From the UHGV virus genome UHGV-0155266: a stretch of 41,512 nt of DNA, one strand, 5' to 3'. This document shows, piece after piece, positions 238-40,638 of this stretch (its first letter is position 1; each line of letters starts with the position of its first letter). This stretch comes from a virus. Under the pieces are notes generated by a model. It did not search any database. It worked only from the letters and a program-made list of their open reading frames with translations, and was not told where the DNA came from. The translations under genes and the position numbers were made by a program.

Positions 238-258
238 GGCCGCGCATGCGGCCTTTTT
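238..258 (+). terminator. rho-independent terminator-like hairpin
   Basis: GGCCGC/GCGGCC stem (238-243 and 248-253) followed by TTTTT at 254-258; lies between the small ORF and the convergent 445-aa gene. Confidence 0.5.
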
Positions 259-1594
259 AGTCTGGATATTGAACATCTACTTCATTTTTTCTAATCTCTG
301 ATGAGATTTTTGAGCACGCTTTTATTAATTCATCCAAGACAATAGCGAGTTTGGCAAAATCATAATTGCTAAAACCCTTACTTCCTGGTTTTAGTTTCAT
401 GAATTTTTTCGTGTAATAGTCTTTATTTTCCAGCGCTCCTTGATAAGCATCACTTTCCTTTTTGTAATTTGACCACCGGATTTTCGCTTCATCATAATCA
501 GAAAATCTTAGATCCAGATAGCATTCAATCGCTACAGCCCGGCCATTGATGTTTTCATAGGTAACGCCGTGAGGACCAATAGCTGGAAATTGATTGAAAT
601 GAGGAAGATCAGGAAGATGAATGCAGCTAATATTGTGAGGCAATGCGAGTTTGCGGATTTTTTCATATGCCTCAATCCCTTCGCAATCATTATCTAACAC
701 GAAAACAATCAAGTTTTGAATGTCGATTTTTACGAGCCCAGCAGCGAACTTAACCAGATTTCCTGAACCAGTGAACGGGTACCCTTCACTCATGTCGATA
801 AAGTGAAAAAAATCTTCTACATCAGGCCGTAAGAGGTGCAATGCGTATTTGATGACGTTGGAGTCGGTGCTTCCCTCGGTGGCAATCAGGAACTTGTCAC
901 GTCTGCGAGCATTTACCTGAATATCTTTTATATTCGCATAACCAGCAGAAACTAGATCTCCGTAATCCCAAGTGACGAATTCATTATGATTATTTGGATT
1001 TTCGGCCAAAAGTCGCATCACTGAGTATGGATGTAGTATGCTAACTAAAGTCCCAAAAGCAGACTTTTCAGACCAAGCATTATCAAAGGCATTGTCGTAT
1101 TGGGGTATCCTGCTTAATAATTCATCATTATTAAATCGGCCCTTGATAAGCTCGCGTTCTTTTATTCTATCTTTTAAGCTAATATAATCATCGTTTAGCT
1201 CGCTAATATTTACGCTCTTGATGAAGTTAACGAATTCATCAAAGCTCATCATGTTACTAATTGGCTTTGCATATTCCGGACAGGATTCGTTAAATTCCTC
1301 TTGGTATTCAATTGAATCTTTAGCCATGAGTTCATACTCATAGCGTATATTTTCAAGGGTGAAACCCAACAATTCCAATCGGTAGGCAACTTGCCCCAAA
1401 GGCTTACGCAACACAGTACGACAGAGGATGCCATCAGGAGTGTCGAAGTCCTCTCCTTCCTCTATTTGATCTTCATTTAGTGGTTTGACGTGATGATCGG
1501 CACTTTGAAACAGGCCTCCATGATCTATACCCAGCGAGTTCTTACTCCAATCTAGCCCCACTCCTGACACTTCAAGAGAAATTACAGTACCCAT
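257..1594 (-). CDS. Toprim-domain protein with uncharacterised N-terminal half (candidate nuclease/defence effector)
   Basis: 445-aa ORF with AAGG upstream. Translation has EGxxD (LIATEGSTD, near aa 238-244) and DxDxxG (LDNDCEG, near aa 300-306) about 60 aa apart, the Toprim signature. No Walker A motif anywhere. Confidence 0.8.
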   Translation of the reverse strand: MGTVISLEVSGVGLDWSKNSLGIDHGGLFQSADHHVKPLNEDQIEEGEDFDTPDGILCRTVLRKPLGQVAYRLELLGFTLENIRYEYELMAKDSIEYQEEFNESCPEYAKPISNMMSFDEFVNFIKSVNISELNDDYISLKDRIKERELIKGRFNNDELLSRIPQYDNAFDNAWSEKSAFGTLVSILHPYSVMRLLAENPNNHNEFVTWDYGDLVSAGYANIKDIQVNARRRDKFLIATEGSTDSNVIKYALHLLRPDVEDFFHFIDMSEGYPFTGSGNLVKFAAGLVKIDIQNLIVFVLDNDCEGIEAYEKIRKLALPHNISCIHLPDLPHFNQFPAIGPHGVTYENINGRAVAIECYLDLRFSDYDEAKIRWSNYKKESDAYQGALENKDYYTKKFMKLKPGSKGFSNYDFAKLAIVLDELIKACSKISSEIRKNEVDVQYPD

Positions 1595-1975: not shown

Positions 1976-2905
1976 ATGTCTGAAATAACTTCAGCTCCTG
2001 CTGTTATGGCGGCACTAGTATCTGCATTAGTTACGGTTTTATTATTTTTTATAAAAGGTGTATGCACACCTTTATGGAATAAATATTTCATTGTTTACAA
2101 AATCAAAGTTGAACATAGCTACGAACAAAAGAAGAAAATCAAAGAGGCGATATCAAAATATAAAATGCCTTTACTCGATTCAGCTGAGTCATTGAATCAT
2201 AGGTTGTGGAATTTTTCAGGAAATTGCACTAAAGGATGGCATAATTTCAAAAATAATGAATCAATTGGTGATAAATATTACCTACAAACTTTTTGTTATC
2301 GATTTTTAGCATTTTATGCTTGGTGTATAAAGTTCGAAAGAGAGTTGATATATTTAGATGTAACACTTTCAGAAAAGAACGATCTTTATTTTGTGAAGTA
2401 TATTAAAACCATGCAAAATATATTTTGCGATGCTTCGATGTTGAGTGGGACTGGTTATGATAATGAGCATGCTGTAGACCATTTTTTCAAGGATGACCTT
2501 ATTAGTATTGTGGAAAAAATGATTACACCTACAGGAGTTATTACTTATTCAGAATTCAAATCTAAATCAGAGTCTGAATTAGACTATACACAGGTTTGCA
2601 AGTACATATCCACCATAATGAGTGACAAATCTTGCAATAAATGGCATTTAATTAACTGTTTCCATTTTATCCTGATGGCCTTTTTGTCAAAGTATGGATA
2701 TGACTATCAAAGAACTGGGTTGTTTAAACTATATAAGCTGCGCTGCTCAGAACCTCAAAATAAGCTGATAAATAATTTTGAAAGGTTAGTATTCAATGCA
2801 AGATTAAATAAATGCAGAGAAATAAAGAAAGCAATAACTATTCTCGAATGCAAATCTAAAATTGCCAATCTCTGTAATTCCCTGAAATTAATAAAAGAGA
2901 ATTAG
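1976..2905 (+). CDS. hypothetical membrane-anchored protein (AT-rich accessory gene)
   Basis: 309-aa ORF with one hydrophobic N-terminal helix (PAVMAALVSALVTVLLFFI), Lys/Asn/Tyr/Cys-rich remainder, AT-rich codon usage; divergent from the Toprim gene. No HExxH, so not Lit. Confidence 0.7.
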   Translation: MSEITSAPAVMAALVSALVTVLLFFIKGVCTPLWNKYFIVYKIKVEHSYEQKKKIKEAISKYKMPLLDSAESLNHRLWNFSGNCTKGWHNFKNNESIGDKYYLQTFCYRFLAFYAWCIKFERELIYLDVTLSEKNDLYFVKYIKTMQNIFCDASMLSGTGYDNEHAVDHFFKDDLISIVEKMITPTGVITYSEFKSKSESELDYTQVCKYISTIMSDKSCNKWHLINCFHFILMAFLSKYGYDYQRTGLFKLYKLRCSEPQNKLINNFERLVFNARLNKCREIKKAITILECKSKIANLCNSLKLIKEN

Positions 2906-5660: not shown

Positions 5661-5843
5661 GTTGCTAACGAATCATCCTGGACTTCATATGCCCCAGGCG
5701 GCTACTTCGTGGGCGTCCTGCCTGTTCGTTGTTTTAACACCTTTAAGTTGTAATTTAGTTGTGGTTTTGAATGTTGTCAACAACTTTATGTGGTTTGAAC
5801 GAGTAGCCAAGGAGTGCAAGGATTATCAAAAAAAGGAGGTTGT

Positions 5844-6734
5844 ATGGAAGACGCGCTTTACGCTTTTAATTACACACAGAACCGGGACAAGTTATTTGCT
5901 AACTTGATTAGCATCATTGATGGAATCATTGCAGATGGAGTTGTCCGTGAAGAGGAGGTTCTTTACTTAGATACATGGTTACTTGAAGCAAAGCAGATTA
6001 TCAATAATGGAGTTATAAAAAGTCTATCAGCACGGGTGTCGGATATTCTTGCGGATGGAATAATCACATCAGAAGAACGTGATGACCTTAAAAATAGCCT
6101 TCTCCAAATACAGAGGGAAATTCTTGATATCCCTGAAATTGATTTTTACTCCAAGGATGTAGATGTCCATTTACTTAATGGACTATGTAAAGGATTAATT
6201 GCTGATCGGAACTTAACTCAAGAAGAAATAAGATATCTTAATTGGTGGCTTGAGCAAAATGGAGCTTTGAAGAACAACTACCCAGGAAAAAAACTTTATG
6301 CACTTGTAAAGGAAATTCTTAAAGATGGGGTTATTACTGAAGATGAGAGTTTAACTCTACATAAGGCATTAGTAGACTTCACAGGATGTGACTTGGAAAG
6401 TGGGGTGGTGGATGGTTTGGCGACCAGGCTGCCTATTGATGTAGGGGCTTCGATAGAGTTAGAGGGTAAAACCTATTGTCTTACAGGCACTTTTGTTGCA
6501 GGAAAGAGAGCCGTAGTTGAAAATTTGATTAAAAATGCTGGTGGGAACATCAGTAGTGGAATTACTCAAAAGTTGGATTTTTTAGTAATTGGGACGCTTT
6601 CCTCCCGTGATTGGAAATTCTCAAGTCACGGAAGGAAGATCGAAAAAGCTATATCTTATAGGGATGATAATGGTGCAAAACTTAAAATTATTTCTGAAGA
6701 AATGCTTTTCGATGCATTACCAAGTTCGCGATGA
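5844..6734 (+). CDS. BRCT-domain protein with four N-terminal tandem repeats
   Basis: ATG at 5844 after AGGAGG. C-terminus (GKTYCLTGTF...LDFLVIG...) follows the NAD-ligase-type BRCT pattern. N-terminus has four roughly 45-aa repeats sharing a D-G-[VI]-[VI]-T-x-[ED]-E motif. Confidence 0.75.
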   Translation: MEDALYAFNYTQNRDKLFANLISIIDGIIADGVVREEEVLYLDTWLLEAKQIINNGVIKSLSARVSDILADGIITSEERDDLKNSLLQIQREILDIPEIDFYSKDVDVHLLNGLCKGLIADRNLTQEEIRYLNWWLEQNGALKNNYPGKKLYALVKEILKDGVITEDESLTLHKALVDFTGCDLESGVVDGLATRLPIDVGASIELEGKTYCLTGTFVAGKRAVVENLIKNAGGNISSGITQKLDFLVIGTLSSRDWKFSSHGRKIEKAISYRDDNGAKLKIISEEMLFDALPSSR

Positions 6735-8711: not shown

Positions 8712-9653
8712 ATGAGCACTAAATTAACCGGCTATGTATGGGATGGTTGCGCTGCATCAGGCATGAAGTTATCCAGTGTGGCAATTATGGCCCGCCTGGC
8801 TGATTTCAGTAATGACGAAGGTGTGTGCTGGCCATCAATTGAAACCATTGCCCGTCAGATTGGCGCGGGGATGAGTACCGTCAGAACGGCTATCGCACGG
8901 CTGGAAGCAGAAGGCTGGTTAACGCGTAAGGCGCGTCGCCAGGGTAACCGCAATGCGTCGAATGTTTATCAGCTTAACGTTGCGAAGCTTCAGGCAGCGG
9001 CATTTTCTCAACTGTCAGATTCTGACCCGTCAAAATCTGACGCATCAAAATCTGACCCGTCAAAATTTGATGCGTCGAAATCTGGCAAAAAAGCGGGTTT
9101 TCACCCGTCAGAATCTGGCGGGGATCCGTCAGTAAAATCAAAACATGATCCGTCAGATAAAAAAACTTCTCGTCCGGACGCTTCGCAACCGGACACGCAG
9201 ACGGCTGAACAGGAGTTTTTAACTCGCCATCCTGATGCGGTTGTATTCAGCCCTAAAAAGCGCCAGTGGGGAACGCAGGATGATTTGACCTGTGCACAGT
9301 GGCTCTGGAAAAAAATCATCGCCCTGTACGAGCAGGCCGCCGAATGTGACGGCGAGGTGGTTCGTCCCAAAGAACCGAACTGGACAGCCTGGGCAAACGA
9401 AATTCGCCTGATGTGTGTGCAGGATAGTCGTACTCACAAACAAATCTGCGAGATGTACAGCCGCGTCAGCCGCGATCCGTTCTGGTGCCGTAACGTGCTC
9501 AGCCCGTCGAAGCTGCGGGAAAAATGGGATGAGCTTTCCCTGCGCTTATCGCCGTCCGTCAGCACGTACACCGAAAAACGCGAAGACCCGTACTTCAAAT
9601 CCAGTTACGACAACGTGGACTACAGCCAGATCCCGGCAGGATTCAGGGGGTGA
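8712..9653 (+). CDS. replication initiation protein (phage O-like replisome organiser)
   Basis: N-terminal HTH typical of phage replication initiators; internal five-residue peptide repeats (SDPSK/SDASK) are encoded by 15-bp DNA iterons, as in lambda O containing ori. Confidence 0.7.
   Translation: MSTKLTGYVWDGCAASGMKLSSVAIMARLADFSNDEGVCWPSIETIARQIGAGMSTVRTAIARLEAEGWLTRKARRQGNRNASNVYQLNVAKLQAAAFSQLSDSDPSKSDASKSDPSKFDASKSGKKAGFHPSESGGDPSVKSKHDPSDKKTSRPDASQPDTQTAEQEFLTRHPDAVVFSPKKRQWGTQDDLTCAQWLWKKIIALYEQAAECDGEVVRPKEPNWTAWANEIRLMCVQDSRTHKQICEMYSRVSRDPFWCRNVLSPSKLREKWDELSLRLSPSVSTYTEKREDPYFKSSYDNVDYSQIPAGFRG
9021..9085 (+). repeat. iteron array (putative phage origin) inside the replication gene
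   Basis: Tandem 15-bp units TCTGACCCGTCAAAA, TCTGACGCATCAAAA, TCTGACCCGTCAAAA, TTTGATGCGTCGAAA; further CCGTCAG copies and an A-rich tract follow to about 9170. Confidence 0.6.
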
Positions 9654-10144
9654 TCATGAGTCTGTTAAATGACGTTCAGAAATTCATTGAAGCTCATCCG
9701 GGGTGTACTTCCGGAGACATTGCAGATGCTTTTGCTGGTTACTCACGGCAGCGCGTTCTGCAGTCAGCAAGCAAGTTACGTCAGAGTGGGCGTGTGGCTC
9801 ACCGTTGTGAAGGGGATACACGCAGACATTTCCCGCGCCTGACTGAGAGAGCGCAGGAGCCGGAACCACAACCAGTTCGTGAAACCAGACCTGTGCGCAA
9901 TTTCTATGTCGGCACTAACGACCCCCGGGTGATTTTGTGCCTGACCCGCCAGGCTGAAGAACTGGAGTCCAGGGGCTTATACCGTCGTGCTGCAACGGTG
10001 TGGATGGCGGCATTCCGTGAAAGCCACTCCCAGCCAGAACGAAATAATTTTCTGGCGCGTCGTGAACGGTGTTTACGGAAAAGCAACAAGCGGGCTGCAT
10101 CAGGTGAAGAGTGGTATCTGTCAGGGAATTACGTGGGGGCTTAA
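9650..10144 (+). CDS. early protein, possible PerC/ANR-type regulator
   Basis: 164-aa ORF translationally coupled to the replication gene; the AEELESRGLYRRAATVWMAAF segment resembles the PerC-family motif as recalled. Inference only. Confidence 0.5.
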   Translation: MIMSLLNDVQKFIEAHPGCTSGDIADAFAGYSRQRVLQSASKLRQSGRVAHRCEGDTRRHFPRLTERAQEPEPQPVRETRPVRNFYVGTNDPRVILCLTRQAEELESRGLYRRAATVWMAAFRESHSQPERNNFLARRERCLRKSNKRAASGEEWYLSGNYVGA

Positions 10145-10797
10145 TGAGTAATAAATATTGCCGGGCGCTGGTGGAGCTGCGGAACAAACCAGCCCATGAA
10201 CTGAAGGAAGTGGGCGATCAGTGGCGCACGCCGGATAACATTTTCTGGGGAATTAACACCCTGTTTGGTCCGTTTGTTCTGGATCTGTTCACTGACGGTG
10301 ATAACGCCAAATGTGCCGCGTATTACACGGCGGAAGACAACGCGCTGGCACATGACTGGTCAGAACGTCTTGCGGAGCTTAAAGGTGCTGCCTTTGGTAA
10401 TCCCCCATACAGCCGCGCCAGTCAGCATGAGGGGCAATACATCACCGGCATGCGTTACATCATGAAGCATGCCAGTGCCATGCGTGATAAAGGCGGTCGC
10501 TATGTTTTCCTGATCAAAGCTGCCACCAGCGAAGTGTGGTGGCCGGAAGATGCAGATCATATTGCTTTTATTCGCGGGCGTATTGGTTTTGAACTGCCTG
10601 CCTGGTTTATCCCGAAGGATGAGAAGCAGGTGCCGACAGGCGCTTTCTTCGCTGGTGCTATTGCTGTTTTCGACAAGACCTGGAAGGGACCGGCAATCAG
10701 CTACATCGGGCGCGATGAACTTGAGGCATGTGGTGAGGCCTTTCTGGCGCAGGTTCGCCAGCAGGCGGAAAAACTGGTCAGGGAGATGGCTGCATGA
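10144..10797 (+). CDS. phage N6-adenine DNA methyltransferase (Dam-like)
   Basis: ATG at 10144 overlaps the upstream stop (TAATG). Contains GNPPY, matching the (D/N)PPY catalytic motif of N6-adenine methyltransferases. Confidence 0.8.
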   Translation: MSNKYCRALVELRNKPAHELKEVGDQWRTPDNIFWGINTLFGPFVLDLFTDGDNAKCAAYYTAEDNALAHDWSERLAELKGAAFGNPPYSRASQHEGQYITGMRYIMKHASAMRDKGGRYVFLIKAATSEVWWPEDADHIAFIRGRIGFELPAWFIPKDEKQVPTGAFFAGAIAVFDKTWKGPAISYIGRDELEACGEAFLAQVRQQAEKLVREMAA

Positions 10798-11120
10798 CGA
10801 CGTTAACTCAATGCCAGCAGCAGGTGCTGGATATGCTGATTTCTTACCAGAAAGAACGTGGCTTCCCGCCAACCAATCAGGAGGTGGCAACCATGCTGGG
10901 ATACCGTTCAGTGAATGCAGCGGTGGAGCATCTTCGAGCACTGGAGAAAAAAGGCGTCATCACGATAAAGCGTGGAGTGGCCCGGGGGATAACGCTTCAT
11001 ACCGCGATGAAGGACGACGACAGCGAGGCGGTCGGGATTATCCGCGCACTGCTTGCCGGTGAGGCAAACGCCAGGCTGCGTGCAGCCCACTGGTTACATG
11101 AGAGGGGCCTGAAAGTATGA
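10794..11120 (+). CDS. LexA-N-terminal-like DNA-binding protein
   Basis: 108-aa ORF; TQCQQQVLDMLISYQKERGFPPTNQEVATMLGYRSVNAAVEHLRALEKKGVI resembles the LexA DNA-binding domain; start overlaps the Dam stop. Confidence 0.55.
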   Translation: MTTLTQCQQQVLDMLISYQKERGFPPTNQEVATMLGYRSVNAAVEHLRALEKKGVITIKRGVARGITLHTAMKDDDSEAVGIIRALLAGEANARLRAAHWLHERGLKV

Positions 11121-11506
11121 AGCTAATACTGCCTTTTCCGCCCAGCGTGAACACGTACTGGCGACACCCCAACAAAGGGGCGTTTGCAGGTAAGAGCCTG
11201 ATAAGCGCGGCGGGGCGCAAATTCCAGAGCGCGGCGTGTGCAGCAATAGTTGAGCAGTTACGTCGTCTGCCAAAACCAACGTCGGCACCTGCTTCAGTGG
11301 AGATCGTGTTGTTTCCTCCGGATAACCGGATCCGCGATCTGGACAACTATAACAAGGCGCTGTTTGACGCCCTGACCCACGCGGGTGTGTGGGAAGACGA
11401 CAGTCAGGTGAAAAGAATGCTGGTGGAGTGGGGACCGGTTATCCCGGAAGGGAAGGTCGAGATCACTATAAGTAAGTACGAGAAAACGGCGGGTGCAGCC
11501 GCCTGA
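11117..11506 (+). CDS. rusA: RusA-type Holliday junction resolvase
   Basis: 129-aa ORF; size and conserved acidic pattern (DLDNYNKALFDALTHAGVWEDDSQV) match the RusA family. Confidence 0.85.
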   Translation: MKLILPFPPSVNTYWRHPNKGAFAGKSLISAAGRKFQSAACAAIVEQLRRLPKPTSAPASVEIVLFPPDNRIRDLDNYNKALFDALTHAGVWEDDSQVKRMLVEWGPVIPEGKVEITISKYEKTAGAAA

Positions 11507-11525
11507 TTAAGAGGAGAAACGAAGT

Positions 11526-12335
11526 ATGAATAATCTGATGGTCATTGATGGTATTGAAGTTCGTCGTGATGCTTATGGGCGTTACAGTCTGAACGATCTG
11601 CATCGCGCAGCAGTAGCATCTGGTGCAAATGCCAGAACCAAGGAGCCAGGAAAGTTTCTTTCCAGCCAACAAACTGTTGAGCTTGTTCATGAATTGACCA
11701 ACACCCAGAATTTGGGTGTTGACCCGGTGAGTGTGATTCATGGGGGAAATGAACGGGGAACGTATGTCTGCAAGGAACTGGTGTATGCCTATGCAATGTG
11801 GATCAGCCCGTCATTCCATCTGAAGGTGATCCGTACTTTCGACATGGTAACCAGCGCACCGGAAAAATTATCCGGACAGGCTGCTGACAAGATGCAGGCT
11901 GGTGTGATTCTGCTGGACTTTATGCGCCGGGAATTAAACCTGTCTAACTCTTCAGTGCTTGGTGCCTGTCAGAAACTCCAGGAGGCTGTTGGCTTACCGA
12001 ATCTGGCACCGCGCTATGCCATTGATGCTCCTGCTGACGCGCCTGATGGCTCAAGCCGCCCCACGCTGTCACTGAGTGCACTGCTGAAGCAGTATGGTAT
12101 CCGCCTGACAGCTAATCAGGCATATCACCAGATGGTGAAGCTGGGGATCGTCGAGCAGCGCGAACGATACAGCCGTACCGCGATTAACAACATCAAAAAA
12201 TTCTGGTCGCTGACAGCGAAAGGCTGCATGTTCGGCAAGAACATCACCAGTCCCGCAAATCCGCGCGAGACGCAGCCGCATTTCTTCGAATCCCGATTCC
12301 CCGAGCTGTTAAAGTTGCTCGATACCGTTCATTGA
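11526..12335 (+). CDS. KilA-N domain protein
   Basis: The N-terminal 100 aa match the KilA-N DNA-binding domain pattern; AAGAGGAG RBS. Confidence 0.7.
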   Translation: MNNLMVIDGIEVRRDAYGRYSLNDLHRAAVASGANARTKEPGKFLSSQQTVELVHELTNTQNLGVDPVSVIHGGNERGTYVCKELVYAYAMWISPSFHLKVIRTFDMVTSAPEKLSGQAADKMQAGVILLDFMRRELNLSNSSVLGACQKLQEAVGLPNLAPRYAIDAPADAPDGSSRPTLSLSALLKQYGIRLTANQAYHQMVKLGIVEQRERYSRTAINNIKKFWSLTAKGCMFGKNITSPANPRETQPHFFESRFPELLKLLDTVH

Positions 12336-15308: not shown

Positions 15309-16361
15309 ATGAAAAATACTGTAAAAACAAACAGTGTTGATTTAATCAACGCTGATTGCCTGCATTTTATTCAGTCCCTGCCTGATGATTCCATTGACCT
15401 GATTGTTACCGATCCGCCGTACTTCAAGGTGAAACCCAACGGTTGGGACAATCAGTGGAAAGGGGACGAAGATTACCTTAAGTGGCTGGACCACTGTCTG
15501 GCCCAGTTCTGGCGGGTGTTGAAACCTGCCGGAAGCCTTTACCTGTTCTGTGGGCATCGCCTGGCATCTGATATTGAGATCATGATGCGTGAACGTTTCA
15601 ACGTGCTTAACCATATCATCTGGGCGAAGCCGTCCGGACGTTGGAATGGGTGTAATAAAGAAAGTCTGCGCGCATATTTTCCTGCCACAGAGCGCGTTCT
15701 GTTTGCTGAACATTACCAGGGGCCATATCGCGGCAAAAGTGACGGCTATGCGGCAAAAGAAAGGGAACTCAAACAGCACATAATGGCACCGCTGATATCG
15801 TATTTCAGGGATGCTCGTGCCGAACTGGGTATAACGGCAAAACAAATTGCCGAAGCCACAGGTAAGAAAAATATGGTTTCCCACTGGTTTGGTGCCAGTC
15901 AGTGGCAGTTGCCGAATGAGGCTGACTACCGGAAGTTACAGGCACTGTTTTCCCGTATAGCGGCAGAGAAGTTTCAGGAACAACAACTGGAACAACCACA
16001 CCACCAGTTGGTGGCATCTTATGATTCACTGAATCGCAAATATTCTGAATTGCTGGATGAGTTTAAATCTCTCCGGCGCTATTTCTCCGTATCAGTCTCC
16101 GTGCCTTATACCGATGTCTGGATGCATAAACCCGTTCAGTTCTACCCGGGTAAACATCCGTGTGAGAAACCGGCGGATATGCTCAGGCAAATAATCAATG
16201 CCAGTAGTCGACCCGGCGATCTGGTTGCTGATTTCTTTATGGGATCCGGTTCCACAATAAAAGCAGCAATGGCGCTGGGGCGTCGGGCGTTAGGTGTTGA
16301 GCTTGAGACAGAGCGGTTTAATCAGACGGTGAAAGAGGTAAGTGAACTGGTGGGGAAATAA
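15309..16361 (+). CDS. DNA methyltransferase (amino-methyltransferase, motif IV before motif I)
   Basis: DPPY near the N-terminus (IVTDPPYF) and an FxGxG-like SAM motif near the C-terminus (DFFMGSGST); no adjacent endonuclease gene. Confidence 0.85.
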   Translation: MKNTVKTNSVDLINADCLHFIQSLPDDSIDLIVTDPPYFKVKPNGWDNQWKGDEDYLKWLDHCLAQFWRVLKPAGSLYLFCGHRLASDIEIMMRERFNVLNHIIWAKPSGRWNGCNKESLRAYFPATERVLFAEHYQGPYRGKSDGYAAKERELKQHIMAPLISYFRDARAELGITAKQIAEATGKKNMVSHWFGASQWQLPNEADYRKLQALFSRIAAEKFQEQQLEQPHHQLVASYDSLNRKYSELLDEFKSLRRYFSVSVSVPYTDVWMHKPVQFYPGKHPCEKPADMLRQIINASSRPGDLVADFFMGSGSTIKAAMALGRRALGVELETERFNQTVKEVSELVGK

Positions 16362-36317: not shown

Positions 36318-36892
36318 CAAACGATGATTACATCCGTCTGTTGTCGGCACTGTTGCCCCCCGGTCCGGCGTGGTCAGCCAGCGATCCGGCGATTGCCGGT
36401 GCGGCACCGTCATTAACCCGCGTTCATCAGCGTGCGGATGCCCTGATGCGGGAGCTGGATCCGCGCACCACCACTGAACTGATAAACCGCTGGGAGCGTC
36501 TGTGCGGTCTGCCGGATGAATGTATTCCCGCAGGGACACAGACCCTTCGCCAGCGTCAGCAACGGCTGGATGCGAAGGTTAACCTGGCGGGCGGAATCAA
36601 CGAGGATTTTTATCTTGCACAGCTTGCTGCCCTGGGCAGACCAGATGCCACCATCACGCGATACGACAAAAGCACGTTCACCTGCTCATCGGCCTGTACT
36701 GACGCTGTGAACGCGCCTGAATGGCGGTATTACTGGCAGGTCAACATGCCAGCCGCCACCAACACCACCTGGATGACATGTGGCGATCCCTGTGATTCCG
36801 CACTGCGTATCTGGGGCGACACAGTTGTCGAATGTGTGCTTAACAAACTCTGCCCGTCGCATACCTACGTAATTTTTAAATATCCGGAGTAA
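36308..36892 (+). CDS. tail protein (Mu gp48-like, YmfQ/DUF2313-like)
   Basis: 194-aa ORF between the J-like gene and the tail fibre gene. Confidence 0.65.
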
Positions 36893-36895
36893 TCC

Positions 36896-37558
36896 ATGCA
36901 TCGTATAGACACGAAAACCGCGCAGAAGGATAAGTTCGGCGCGGGTAAGAACGGTTTTACCCGTGGTAACCCCCAGACCGGCACGCCTGCCACCGATCTG
37001 GATGATGACTACTTTGACATGTTGCAGGAGGAGCTTTGCAGCGTTGTGGAGGCGTCCGGTGCCAGCCTGGAGAAGGGGCGGCACGACCAGCTACTTACCG
37101 CGCTTCGCGCGCTGCTGTTAAGCCGCAAGAATCCGTTTGGCGATATCAAATCGGATGGCACGGTGAAAACGGCTCTCGAAAACCTTGGTTTGGGAGAAGC
37201 GGCAAAACGGAATGTGGGGACAGGGGAAAATCAGATACCGGACATGGCCTCTTTTGCCAGTGGTGATGGATGGATGAAATTACCCAACGGTAAAATTCTG
37301 CAATATGGTCGAGGCGAGGCTATGCCGAAATTATCGACGCAAACAATGAGGATTACATTTCCTATCCCTTTCCCTAAAAAAGCGGACTGCGCCATTCTTA
37401 CCCATTCTGGTGATGGCGGTGCGCCTTTAGGCGCTGGGCGAGGGTTCGTGATGACTGCAGAAGGCCCTACGTTAACCGGCTTTAATTCTGCTTACAGAAC
37501 GTCATCAACCAGTGACACGGTATCTATGCATTACAGTTGGTGGGCTGTTGGTGAGTAA
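36896..37558 (+). CDS. tail fibre protein (constant N-terminus plus currently expressed variable C-terminus)
   Basis: 220-aa ORF; the constant part ends at GLGE, encoded across the left inversion site near 37185; the C-terminal 124 aa lie inside the invertible segment. Confidence 0.75.
37173..37198. repeat. left Pin recombination site (gix/pix-like)
   Basis: ctctcgaaaaccttggtttgggagaa; its 3' 14 nt are identical to the reverse complement of 39064-39077. Confidence 0.6.
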
Positions 37559-37569
37559 TTTTATTCAGG

Positions 37570-38022
37570 GTGATTTATATGAACGAATATGTTTATAGTG
37601 CCAGGCATAATGCTTTTTTCCCTGTGGATATGATTGATAAATATAAATCAGTAGGATGGGATTTATCAGATGCTAAGGAGGTGAATCAAAATATTGTCAG
37701 TGAGTTTATGGCTGAACCGCCACAAGGAAAAGTCCGTATTGCCGGAGAGGATGGACTACCTGCGTGGGCAGATATTCCTCCACCTACTCATGAAGAGCTT
37801 ATTGAAATTACTGAATCAGAAAGACAGCTACTAATTAACCAGGCTAACGAATACATGAACGGTAAGCAATGGCCTGGTAAAGCCGCTATTGGTCGTCTGA
37901 AAGGTGAGGAACTGGCGCAATATAATTTGTGGCTGGATTATCTGGACGCACTGGAGCTGATCGATACTTCCGGTGCGCCAGATATTGAATGGCCTACGCC
38001 TCCGGCAATTCAGGCCAGATGA
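37570..38022 (+). CDS. tail fibre assembly protein (active orientation)
   Basis: 150-aa ORF directly after the tail fibre gene; its C-terminal motif (DTSGAPDIEWPTPP) parallels that of the opposing copy (DTSTAPDVIWPELP). Confidence 0.7.
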   Translation: MIYMNEYVYSARHNAFFPVDMIDKYKSVGWDLSDAKEVNQNIVSEFMAEPPQGKVRIAGEDGLPAWADIPPPTHEELIEITESERQLLINQANEYMNGKQWPGKAAIGRLKGEELAQYNLWLDYLDALELIDTSGAPDIEWPTPPAIQAR

Positions 38023-38596
38023 CATCCGGCGCTGTGCTGGTATCTGTTGCCGTCACCGCGTCAATGTAATCCAGCACAGCGTTAAGGCGGGTTGTTTCTG
38101 CCTGCGTCAGCTTCCGTCCGGCCTGTAATTTCAGTTGAATCAGACTGATGGAGGCCATTGCAGTATCAATCAGCGACTGGCGCTGTGCTTCTGCTGCATC
38201 TACTGCTGCGCCGTGCTGTGCCTCGGTATCTGTCACCCATTTCTCACCATTCCATTCATCGTATGGCGTTAACGGGGCGATAGTGGTTGTATTTTCAGGA
38301 TAATCACCCGGAGCTGTGATTTCTTTCGATTCTCCTGTTTCGGTGCTATAGACAATTTCACCGCGATGATCTGGCACATATTCCCATGAGTTTAAATCCA
38401 TCGAACGGCAGATAGCATAACCCGCCTTATGTGTGCCAGGGGCATCTAAACAGGAATATGCAGGGATACCGACACCAATGGCAAGATATTCATTTGAAGT
38501 GGAAATATATTCCCGAGTTTTACCATCATAGTTATAGACGGTAATATTCCCCGCCTTCGTGGCAATAAGCTCGCTATTTAATACGGCGTTATCCAT
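37994..38596 (-). CDS. tail fibre assembly protein (alternative, inverted orientation)
   Basis: 200-aa ORF on the minus strand inside the invertible segment, convergent with and overlapping the plus-strand tfa. Confidence 0.7.
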   Translation of the reverse strand: MDNAVLNSELIATKAGNITVYNYDGKTREYISTSNEYLAIGVGIPAYSCLDAPGTHKAGYAICRSMDLNSWEYVPDHRGEIVYSTETGESKEITAPGDYPENTTTIAPLTPYDEWNGEKWVTDTEAQHGAAVDAAEAQRQSLIDTAMASISLIQLKLQAGRKLTQAETTRLNAVLDYIDAVTATDTSTAPDVIWPELPEA

Positions 38597-39076
38597 TATG
38601 CAGCCCTCACGATAAAATTAAATGCAATATTTCGTGGACGGGTTTCATTCCCGCCAGTATTACCGATACTCCCTCGTGAATGAAGTGTCGGTGATGGGAT
38701 CAGACTCCCTCCTGTATTTGTGGCATCAAGTCCCCGTCCTTGTGTGTATGTCTTTTTGAAAATCGTAGCCAGTTCCCATTCATCTTTTGTGTCGTAACCA
38801 TCATTTGCAACAACAATATGGCGGTGTTTTTCCAGCATCCCTGTCTGAATGCTCAATAAAACACGTCCTGCATCAATACCGCGCCCGTCATCCCAGCCAC
38901 GAATAAACTCACCGCGTAAATCAGGTAATTTATTTGTTGGATAAGCCTTTGCCAGTTCCGGGTATTCTTCAGCAGAAAATGCCGCACCGTTGCATTTCAG
39001 CCAGCCTGTTGGCGGTGTGGCTGAAGGCCATGGAACAGGCACACCAACAGGTAATGCAGAGCCTTCTCCCAAACCA
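38596..39076 (-). CDS. alternative tail fibre variable C-terminus (silent until inversion)
   Basis: Minus-strand frame encoding ...NVGLGEGSALP... and a Gly-rich fibre tip; it shares the GLGE junction with the expressed fibre at the inversion site and has no start codon of its own. Confidence 0.65.
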
Positions 39077-39089
39077 ACGTTTATGAAAA
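39064..39089. repeat. right Pin recombination site (gix/pix-like)
   Basis: ttctcccaaaccaacgtttatgaaaa, inverted relative to 37173-37198. Confidence 0.6.
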
Positions 39090-39143
39090 TGCAGAAATAA
39101 CGAGCAAATGGCATCATTCCTGCTTTTGTCAGGGGGATCTACC

Positions 39144-39698
39144 ATGCTTATTGGCTATGTACGCGTATCAACAAATGACCAGAACACAGATCTACAACGT
39201 AATGCGCTGAACTGTGCAGGATGTGAGCTGATTTTTGAAGACAAGATAAGCGGTACAAAGTCCGAAAGGCCGGGACTGAAAAAACTGCTCAGGACATTAT
39301 CGGCAGGTGACACGCTGGTGGTCTGGAAACTGGACCGGCTGGGGCGCAGTATGCGGCATCTTGTCGTGCTGGTGGAGGAGTTGCGCGAACGAGGCATCAA
39401 CTTTCGTAGTCTGACGGATTCAATTGATACCAGTACCCCAATGGGGCGCTTTTTCTTTCATGTGATGGGTGCCCTGGCTGAAATGGAGCGTGAACTGATT
39501 GTTGAAAGAACAAAAGCTGGACTGGAAGCTGCTCGCGCACAGGGACGAATTGGTGGACGTCGTCCCAAACTTACACCAGAACAATGGGAACAGGCCGGAC
39601 GATTAATTGCATCAGGAGTTCCTCGCCAGAAGGTGGCGATTATCTATGATGTTGGTGTGTCAACTTTGTATAAGAGGTTTCCTGCAGGGGATAAATAA
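39144..39698 (+). CDS. pin: DNA invertase Pin (serine recombinase, Gin/Hin/Pin family)
   Basis: MLIGYVRVSTNDQ N-terminus with the catalytic Ser, resolvase domain and C-terminal HTH; closely matches e14 PinE as recalled; adjacent to the invertible segment. Confidence 0.9.
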   Translation: MLIGYVRVSTNDQNTDLQRNALNCAGCELIFEDKISGTKSERPGLKKLLRTLSAGDTLVVWKLDRLGRSMRHLVVLVEELRERGINFRSLTDSIDTSTPMGRFFFHVMGALAEMERELIVERTKAGLEAARAQGRIGGRRPKLTPEQWEQAGRLIASGVPRQKVAIIYDVGVSTLYKRFPAGDK

Positions 39699-39804
39699 AG
39701 TTAAAGACACTTTTTGTACAAAAGAGAATAAAACAACAGCAACTTGTTGCAATTTTATCAATAAAAGTAGTATTGTCGTGAAAAATTGATTAAAGATTAA
39801 TATT

Positions 39805-40638
39805 ATGCATGTTTTTGATAATAATGGAATTGAACTGAAAGCTGAGTGTTCGATAGGTGAAGAGGATGGTGTTTATGGTCTAATCCTTGAGTCGTGGGGG
39901 CCGGGTGACAGAAACAAAGATTACAATATCGCTCTTGATTATATCATTGAACGGTTGGTTGATTCTGGTGTATCCCAAGTCGTAGTATATCTGGCGTCAT
40001 CATCAGTCAGAAAACATATGCATTCTTTGGATGAAAGAAAAATCCATCCTGGTGAATATTTTACTTTGATTGGTAATAGCCCCCGCGATATACGCTTGAA
40101 GATGTGTGGTTATCAGGCTTATTTTAGTCGTACGGGGAGAAAGGAAATTCCTTCCGGCAATAGAACGAAACGAATATTGATAAATGTCCCAGGTATTTAT
40201 AGTGACAGTTTTTGGGCGTCTATAATACGTGGAGAACTATCAGAGCTTTCACAGCCTACAGATGATGAATCGCTTCTGAATATGAGGGTTAGTAAATTAA
40301 TTAAGAAAACGTTGAGTCAACCCGAGGGCTCCAGGAAACCAGTTGAGGTAGAAAGACTACAAAAAGTTTATGTCCGAGACCCGATGGTAAAAGCTTGGAT
40401 TTTACAGCAAAGTAAAGGTATATGTGAAAACTGTGGTAAAAATGCTCCGTTTTATTTAAATGATGGAAACCCATATTTGGAAGTGCATCATGTAATTCCC
40501 CTGTCTTCAGGTGGTGCTGATACAACAGATAACTGTGTTGCCCTTTGTCCGAATTGCCATAGAGAATTGCACTATAGTAAAAATGCAAAAGAACTAATCG
40601 AGATGCTTTACGTTAATATAAACCGATTACAGAAATAA
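39805..40638 (+). CDS. mcrA: McrA-like modified-cytosine restriction endonuclease (HNH)
   Basis: 277-aa protein with a C-terminal HNH motif (HHVIPLSSGGADTTDNCVALCPNCH); sequence and position (after pin at the e14 right end) match E. coli McrA as recalled. Confidence 0.85.
   Translation: MHVFDNNGIELKAECSIGEEDGVYGLILESWGPGDRNKDYNIALDYIIERLVDSGVSQVVVYLASSSVRKHMHSLDERKIHPGEYFTLIGNSPRDIRLKMCGYQAYFSRTGRKEIPSGNRTKRILINVPGIYSDSFWASIIRGELSELSQPTDDESLLNMRVSKLIKKTLSQPEGSRKPVEVERLQKVYVRDPMVKAWILQQSKGICENCGKNAPFYLNDGNPYLEVHHVIPLSSGGADTTDNCVALCPNCHRELHYSKNAKELIEMLYVNINRLQK

Follow-up and report, generated by a model that had tools for sequence, protein, structure and literature searches.

A very probable Pin/pix tail-fiber inversion switch in an e14-family prophage at icd

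Near one end of virus genome UHGV-0155266, two tail-fiber tips with their assembly genes face each other beside a gene for a DNA invertase. This raises the question of whether the stretch between them can invert and, if so, which proteins would be exchanged and what the exchange might serve. We analyzed the whole 41,512-nt stretch of DNA (here called the window). A preliminary description had proposed a Pin-driven invertible segment that encodes two alternative fiber C-termini with their chaperones. Very probably, the locus is the Pin/pix inversion switch, or P segment, of a prophage of the e14 family that is integrated at icd. The segment itself is the already known e14 P segment with Pin, of the Hin/Gin/Cin/Pin group, and RefSeq routinely annotates its genes (pinE, tfaE).

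The segment is bounded by two 26-bp recombination sites that are inverted relative to each other and carry no strand of their own. The left site, pixL (37173..37198), reads CTCTCGAAAACC-TT-GGTTTGGGAGAA, with two 12-bp half-sites around a core TT at 37185-37186, and the right site, pixR (39064..39089), reads TTCTCCCAAACC-AA-CGTTTATGAAAA, with a core AA at 39076-39077. Every base of both sites is the same as in the P segment of Escherichia coli K-12 e14. With the two 26-mers aligned in one sense, 21/26 positions agree, and each site is an imperfect palindrome, with half-sites that match at 9/12 and 8/12 positions and AA/TT at the core of both. The 14-nt core that the preliminary description had found common to the sites, TTCTCCCAAACCAA, occurs exactly twice in the window, once per strand, where chance would give ~0.02 matches; none of 100 shuffles (0/100) gave two copies. 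Perfect inverted identity between the sites extends to 15 nt (37185-37199 / 39063-39077), and the best inverted repeat of the region has 20-nt arms (37180-37199 and 39063-39082) that are 95% complementary. Both fiber reading frames run across the sites as ...N(L/V)GLGE.... The inverted 26-bp sites at these coordinates, their identical core, and the GLGE junction peptide shared by the two fiber variants thus all stand as first described. No third site of the pix type was found elsewhere in the window, and a multisite (shufflon or Min-like) system was rejected because the window has just these two. Crossover should fall at the central TT/AA dinucleotide (37185-37186 / 39076-39077) and invert 1,893 bp (37185-39077).

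The invertase gene, pin (39144..39698, plus strand), encodes a 184-aa protein of the small serine DNA invertase type, in which Ser9 is the nucleophile; this protein matches the Pfam families Resolvase (E = 1.5e-51) and HTH_7 (E = 1.4e-13). Pin has the build of the Din family, whose members (∼185 to 195 aa) combine a catalytic N-terminal domain bearing Ser9/10 with a C-terminal helix-turn-helix. It is identical to K-12 PinE at 180/184 positions (97.8%), and the four differences (T129A, A149E, A157S, and T159V) leave Ser9 untouched. Identity to Mu Gin is about 80%. Residues 1-181 align with the solved Gin structures 3uj3 and 4m6f (E = 5.5e-95), of which 3uj3 has Ala at the position where Pin and 4m6f have Ser9. 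A Resolvase-plus-HTH_7 serine recombinase so close to PinE, encoded by the gene adjoining the segment, bears out the proposal that the segment is Pin driven.

A candidate recombinational enhancer with two putative Fis sites lies in the 5′ end of pin (39162..39233, no strand assigned). In the P1 record, nt 19-90 of cin are annotated as the enhancer; their homologue in pin is 39162-39233, which begins 85 bp from the pixR core, similar to the ~100 bp in hin (PMC3798978). This stretch shares 58/72 nt with P1 cin and 56/72 nt with gin, although it is coding sequence in which conservation is expected anyway; for the rest of the gene, pin and cin agree at 72%. Two 15-mers of the form G-N13-C (39165-39179 and 39214-39228) have centers 49 bp apart. 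In a strict scan for this form, the pair was conserved in pin and gin, and P1/P7 cin did not have the terminal C of the first 15-mer. Because that 15-mer is imperfect in P1/P7 cin, we assigned the enhancer by homology only, and both its position and its Fis dependence in pin are predictions from sequence. A promoter and terminator scan of 36700-39900 returned no more sites than shuffled controls did, and neither pin nor a minus-strand leader discussed below had a convincing site upstream; we therefore make no promoter claim.

Between the core dinucleotides lies the invertible segment proper (37185..39077, unstranded; 1,893 bp), whose limits were defined by the exact inversion between two natural strains described below. 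The constant 5′ part of the tail-fiber gene, codons 1-96 (36896..37184, plus strand), is outside the segment and joins either tip. It belongs to a 220-aa open reading frame (ORF; 36896-37558, plus strand), and K-12 StfP and the short tail fiber of phage SfII have near-identical N-termini. Fiber tip A (37199..37558, plus strand), which is expressed in the window orientation, is a Gp53-like_C domain (Pfam PF21882, E = 5.4e-13), and it is followed by assembly chaperone A (37579..38022, plus strand; 147 aa; Pfam Caudo_TAP, E = 4.6e-29), the counterpart of TfaP. The ORF of this chaperone has an alternative start, GTG 37570. On the minus strand, fiber tip B (38596..39063), of the StfE type, carries a phage tail Collar domain (Pfam Collar, E = 1.2e-15), matches the T4 gp37 tip 2xgf (E = 2e-16), and is similar to the region with which T4 gp37 and short tail fibers bind receptors. 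Its ORF (38596-39117, minus strand) encodes 173 aa including a leader. Tip B pairs with assembly chaperone B, or TfaE (37994..38596, minus strand; 200 aa; Pfam Caudo_TAP, E = 3.2e-32), and the two chaperone genes overlap by 29 nt at their 3′ ends. The two pairs are thus convergent, each consisting of a tip and then its own Caudo_TAP chaperone. Tips A and B are unrelated (BLASTP between them, E = 2.3), and the chaperones have only the C-terminal Caudo_TAP part in common. Since each tip has its own chaperone and the two chaperones are alike only in that part, each orientation provides a matched tip and chaperone.

As it stands, the window encodes the 220-aa fiber with the Gp53-like tip. When we replaced 37185-39077 by its reverse complement in silico, the 96 constant codons came into frame with the Collar tip and gave a 256-aa fiber; RefSeq places a tail fiber protein coding sequence of 771 nt, which corresponds to 256 aa, at the same position in flipped genomes. 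Both alternative fiber reading frames are open. These results agree with the preliminary description, which had two alternative C-termini with chaperones (now assigned to Gp53-like_C and Collar tips, each with a Caudo_TAP protein) and a swap of fiber tip and tfa upon inversion. Its remark that the window holds one orientation also stands: this is the orientation of the K-12 reference.

The preliminary description had proposed looking for both orientations in a population, and public genomes provide them. We compared a 2,951-nt query (36800-39750), in its window and flipped versions, with 5,426 complete E. coli genomes, counting matches in which at least 80% of the query was covered in one piece. 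The window orientation was found in 79 genomes and the flipped orientation in 82, and a near-identical series of cattle isolates was present in both lists. For two of these cattle strains, 139 and 118, the chromosome records are equally long, and the 14.9-kb loci are distinguished solely by the DNA between the sites; when the 1,893 bp of strain 139 are flipped, the result is the strain 118 locus, with 0 mismatches over the 14.9 kb. The near-clonal set thus contains an exact inversion. The natural breakpoints are located to within the 15-nt stretch that both sites share, in inverted form, at their inner ends. Copies at the icd locus that are 99.4% identical to the window also occur in both orientations, and in one prophage, which shares 99.9% identity with the window along its first 20 kb, the segment has been frozen in the flipped state by an IS3-associated deletion.

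Work on K-12 is consistent with these observations. In e14, both orientations coexist in clonal cultures, as seen by sequencing and PCR (PMC4272514). Overproduction of PinE led to 49% inversion, deletion of pinE locked the segment in the noninverted state, and the inverted state was present in 33% of 562 deposited E. coli genomes (PMC12529663). An assembly artifact as the source of the orientation differences was ruled out by the mismatch-free flip of the 14.9-kb locus together with the PCR and quantitative PCR results in K-12 (PMC4272514; PMC12529663). Phage vB_EcoM-689R6 (ON470584) was considered as a complete reference and rejected: the record is partial, includes flanking host sequence (icd and others), and is interrupted at the invertible segment, so it says nothing on orientation. 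Based on these relatives, inversion probably occurs in the copy analyzed here as well.

The mechanism of inversion is established for the Hin/Gin/Cin/Pin invertases and is carried over here from the family, whose members need Fis, negatively supercoiled DNA, and inversely arranged sites in vitro. Pin dimers would bind the two 26-bp sites, and the bound sites would synapse on the Fis-bound enhancer in the 5′ end of pin to form an invertasome, as in the Hin family model, in which the Fis-bound enhancer lies ~100 bp from one site (PMC3798978). All four strands would then be cut at the central AA/TT dinucleotides through phosphoserine links to Ser9, one pair of subunits would turn 180 degrees, and religation would leave 37185-39077 inverted. 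The start codon and first 96 codons of the fiber lie outside the segment, as would its promoter. In the window orientation, the cell or phage would make the 220-aa Gp53-like fiber with chaperone A and, after inversion, the 256-aa Collar-tip fiber with chaperone B (TfaE).

The closest known system is the P segment and PinE of the K-12 cryptic prophage e14, for which the work of Plasterk and van de Putte in 1985 is said to be the reference. The preliminary description did not name this known segment. In K-12 (NC_000913, b1154-b1158), it occupies the same place, the right end of the icd-inserted element, with mcrA, icdC, and iraM following; K-12 and the window share the gene context of ymfQ, fiber, two tfa genes, pinE, mcrA, icdC, and iraM. 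Accordingly, the window ends with mcrA (its McrA is 100% identical to that of K-12), a duplicated icd 3′ end, and iraM, which together form the e14 right junction. Besides the identical pix sites, the constant fiber head is the same, and TfaE and YmfQ are 90.5% and 98.5% identical, respectively.

The contents of the segment differ. It measures 1,893 bp here and 1,829 bp in K-12 e14. Window positions 37214-37867 (tip A and the front of chaperone A) have no detectable DNA similarity to K-12, and 38646-38845 (the middle of tip B) have no DNA match there. The tip A fiber is 220 aa, compared with 209 aa for StfP, and the two are 57.7% identical overall, with nearly all of this identity within the constant head. 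Chaperone A (147 aa, compared with 137 aa in K-12) is 41.8% identical to TfaP and is conserved in its C-terminal third alone, and the tip B ORF is 61.7% identical to StfE, with its middle part replaced. Both receptor-binding parts have thus been replaced relative to K-12, whereas the junction, the Collar domain, the C-terminal ends, and TfaE were kept. The tips are not of the K-12 type defined by the StfP and StfE C-termini, and by sequence comparison the cassette is an allelic variant, not the K-12 allele. It is also not new, since many sequenced E. coli, O157:H7 among them, carry this allele. The surrounding prophage, with a tail like those of SfII and SfV, looks complete here, unlike the deleted remnant in K-12.

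The Mu G and P1 C segments are arranged in the same way, with a constant head outside, two opposed pairs of tip and chaperone inside, and a small serine invertase gene alongside. In Mu, this takes the form of a constant S head, Sv-U, U′-Sv′, and gin. The Mu gix sites have the same 26-bp design and agree with pix at 17 to 18 of 26 positions, although the core is AA here and GA in gix. The Mu G segment is larger (about 3 kb, compared with 1.9 kb here), its fibers are longer (about 500 aa, compared with 220 and 256 aa), and the tips are unrelated. In P1, which like P7 has a C segment with the invertase Cin, the invertase gene is on the other side of the segment; the homologue of the cin enhancer sits in the 5′ end of pin. 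The Hin/hix system of Salmonella flagellar phase variation uses a recombinase of this subfamily and also works through an invertasome, whose Fis-bound enhancer is located ~100 bp away from one of the sites (PMC3798978). Hin inverts a promoter, whereas Pin here would swap the 3′ ends of coding sequences. The head, tail, and baseplate modules of Shigella phages SfII, SfI, SfIV, and SfV, as well as the first ~116 aa of the fiber, are ~97% identical to those of the window, and the start of the Shigella phage fiber includes an intact copy of the left site. Yet the SfII stretch that we examined has no invertase and no second site, only a single tip and chaperone, and is not a switch.

By analogy with Mu G and P1 C, we infer that the segment acts as a host-range switch. 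The window holds a full set of head, tail, and baseplate genes, ~97% identical to those of SfII, SfI, SfIV, and SfV, and this complete structural gene set makes a host-range switch for real particles plausible. Because the prophage is complete, its lysate would hold particles of two receptor specificities, as with Mu G(+) and G(−).

The same arrangement permits a second outlet for the tips. A short leader lies outside the segment (39078..39117, minus strand), with its first 13 codons reading MMPFARYFCIFIN and then continuing into VGLGE inside the segment (ORF 38596-39117). Its start, ATG 39117, opens a frame into whichever tip adjoins pin. Since this leader ORF is present here, the "silent" minus-strand pair may not be entirely silent. 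In K-12, an ORF that starts outside the segment near pin gives StfE or StfE2, and inversion by PinQ or PinE yields StfE2, with resistance to T2 and reduced T2 adsorption (PMC12529663). The sole published phenotype of inversion in K-12 is defense against T2, not host range (PMC12529663).

These reports raise the alternative that the switch is mainly an anti-phage device of the host, in which the leader-tip protein would cover receptors in the outer membrane and keep other phages from adsorbing. Besides the StfE2-linked T2 resistance of K-12 e14 (PMC12529663), conservation of the leader ORF (MMPFARYFCIFINVGLGE here and MPFACYFFIFINVGLGE in K-12) fits this reading, as does other defense cargo of the element, mcrA and a HEPN/Toprim protein. 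However, the leader would here be fused to a tip very unlike that of K-12 StfP, and the T2 result is for this reason not transferable. The scan of 36700-39900 found no promoter-like site at the leader, and given the full structural gene set, a fiber switch is the simplest purpose. We consider a mainly defensive role unlikely, though one that merits weight, and the defense and fiber-switch roles are not mutually exclusive. A bolder version is that the leader joined to the Gp53-like tip after inversion would be a receptor-masking decoy with an anti-phage specificity other than that of StfE2, and that the tip cassettes of e14-family elements would form a diversifying, invertase-switched defense repertoire; this is speculative and, in our judgment, rather improbable.

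Two further readings concern whether the local switch works at all. The segment could be a fossil, with sites and gene present in a copy that no longer switches, given that K-12 e14 has decayed and that the window shows one orientation only. This is extremely improbable: both sites and pin are intact and all but identical with their counterparts in a working system, both reading frames are open, and the orientations are about equally frequent among genomes and occur together within a near-clonal set of isolates. Alternatively, inversion might be driven mainly in trans by another Pin-family invertase of the PinQ/PinR type, encoded elsewhere in the genome and thus beyond the window, with the local pin contributing little. 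Hin, Gin, Cin, and Pin can replace one another. Both PinE and the PinQ of prophage Qin invert the K-12 segment, and PinQ does so more fully (88%, compared with 49%; PMC12529663). Against a minor part for the local gene, deletion of pinE locks the K-12 segment in its noninverted state (PMC12529663), and the pin of the window is intact, with substitutions that all spare Ser9. We regard a dominant trans-acting invertase as quite improbable.

Read as a Pin/pix inversion switch of an e14-family prophage, the finding adds little in itself, as it reidentifies a textbook site-specific inversion system that is annotated in many E. coli genomes. Its setting is of modest value. The window represents a complete, ancestor-like form of the e14 element that is deleted in K-12, and it indicates that fiber-tip cassettes within the segment are swapped from one allele to another. 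It thereby offers a natural variant in which the defense role proposed for the P segment may be compared with the classical role in host range.

The stretch from 3034 to 41100 of the window is apparently a complete, whole prophage of the e14 family, and similarity between it and e14 of Escherichia coli K-12, a deleted remnant, is confined to blocks. In window coordinates, the deletion edges of the K-12 element lie at 8945/20513 and 22250/35530. These two gaps account for the K-12 fusion gene ymfN, which joins a replication protein to terminase, and for the pseudogenes beeE and jayE, which are portal and baseplate J fragments, respectively.

Cargo at the left end also differs, with K-12 e14 carrying ymfD, ymfE, and lit. 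In the window we found a 445-aa protein with a HEPN/Toprim N-terminal domain (257-1594, minus strand) and a 309-aa protein (1976-2905, plus strand), for which Pfam and PADLOC gave no match; the two possibly form a defense pair. A BRCT-domain protein of the early region (5814-6734, plus strand) had a weak PADLOC match to the candidate system PDC-S48 (E = 2.7e-7). The prophage also encodes an N6/N4 DNA methyltransferase (15309-16361, plus strand), and no restriction partner for it was present among the scanned open reading frames. McrA, a methyl-directed nuclease, is carried on the same element as this methyltransferase.

Within the invertible segment (37185-39077), the two chaperone genes converge, with a 29-nt overlap (37994-38022) between their 3′ ends. 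G+C content falls from ∼0.55 to 0.6 in the baseplate genes to 0.41 to 0.47 in parts of the segment, consistent with imported cassettes.

A prophage of E. coli PS1Thumoskin9 (NZ_CP180607) shares 99.9% identity with the window. In the region concerned (9576-12239 of the examined stretch), its tail genes have been replaced, together with one half of the invertible segment, by an IS3-family element. The surviving half is in the flipped orientation, and the switch is thus now locked. The partial record of Escherichia phage vB_EcoM-689R6 (ON470584.1), which includes the host genes icd, mnmA, and hflD, begins at the invertase and has a truncated fiber; the contig appears to have been broken at the invertible segment. 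In Shigella phage SfII (NC_021857), the left site (window 37173-37198) recurs intact at 1755-1780 of the examined stretch, inside a short tail fiber gene whose first ∼116 aa are the same as those of the window fiber. Neither a second site nor an invertase was found in the 6 kb examined, over which SfII is a nonswitching relative with an orphan site.

Beside pin lies a leader (39078-39117, minus strand) that starts outside the segment and whose frame runs into the tip adjoining pin. Its reading frame is MMPFARYFCIFINVGLGE, and the final five codons fall inside the segment. This leader is conserved in K-12 e14, where its postinversion product, StfE2, is reported to block T2 adsorption (PMC12529663).
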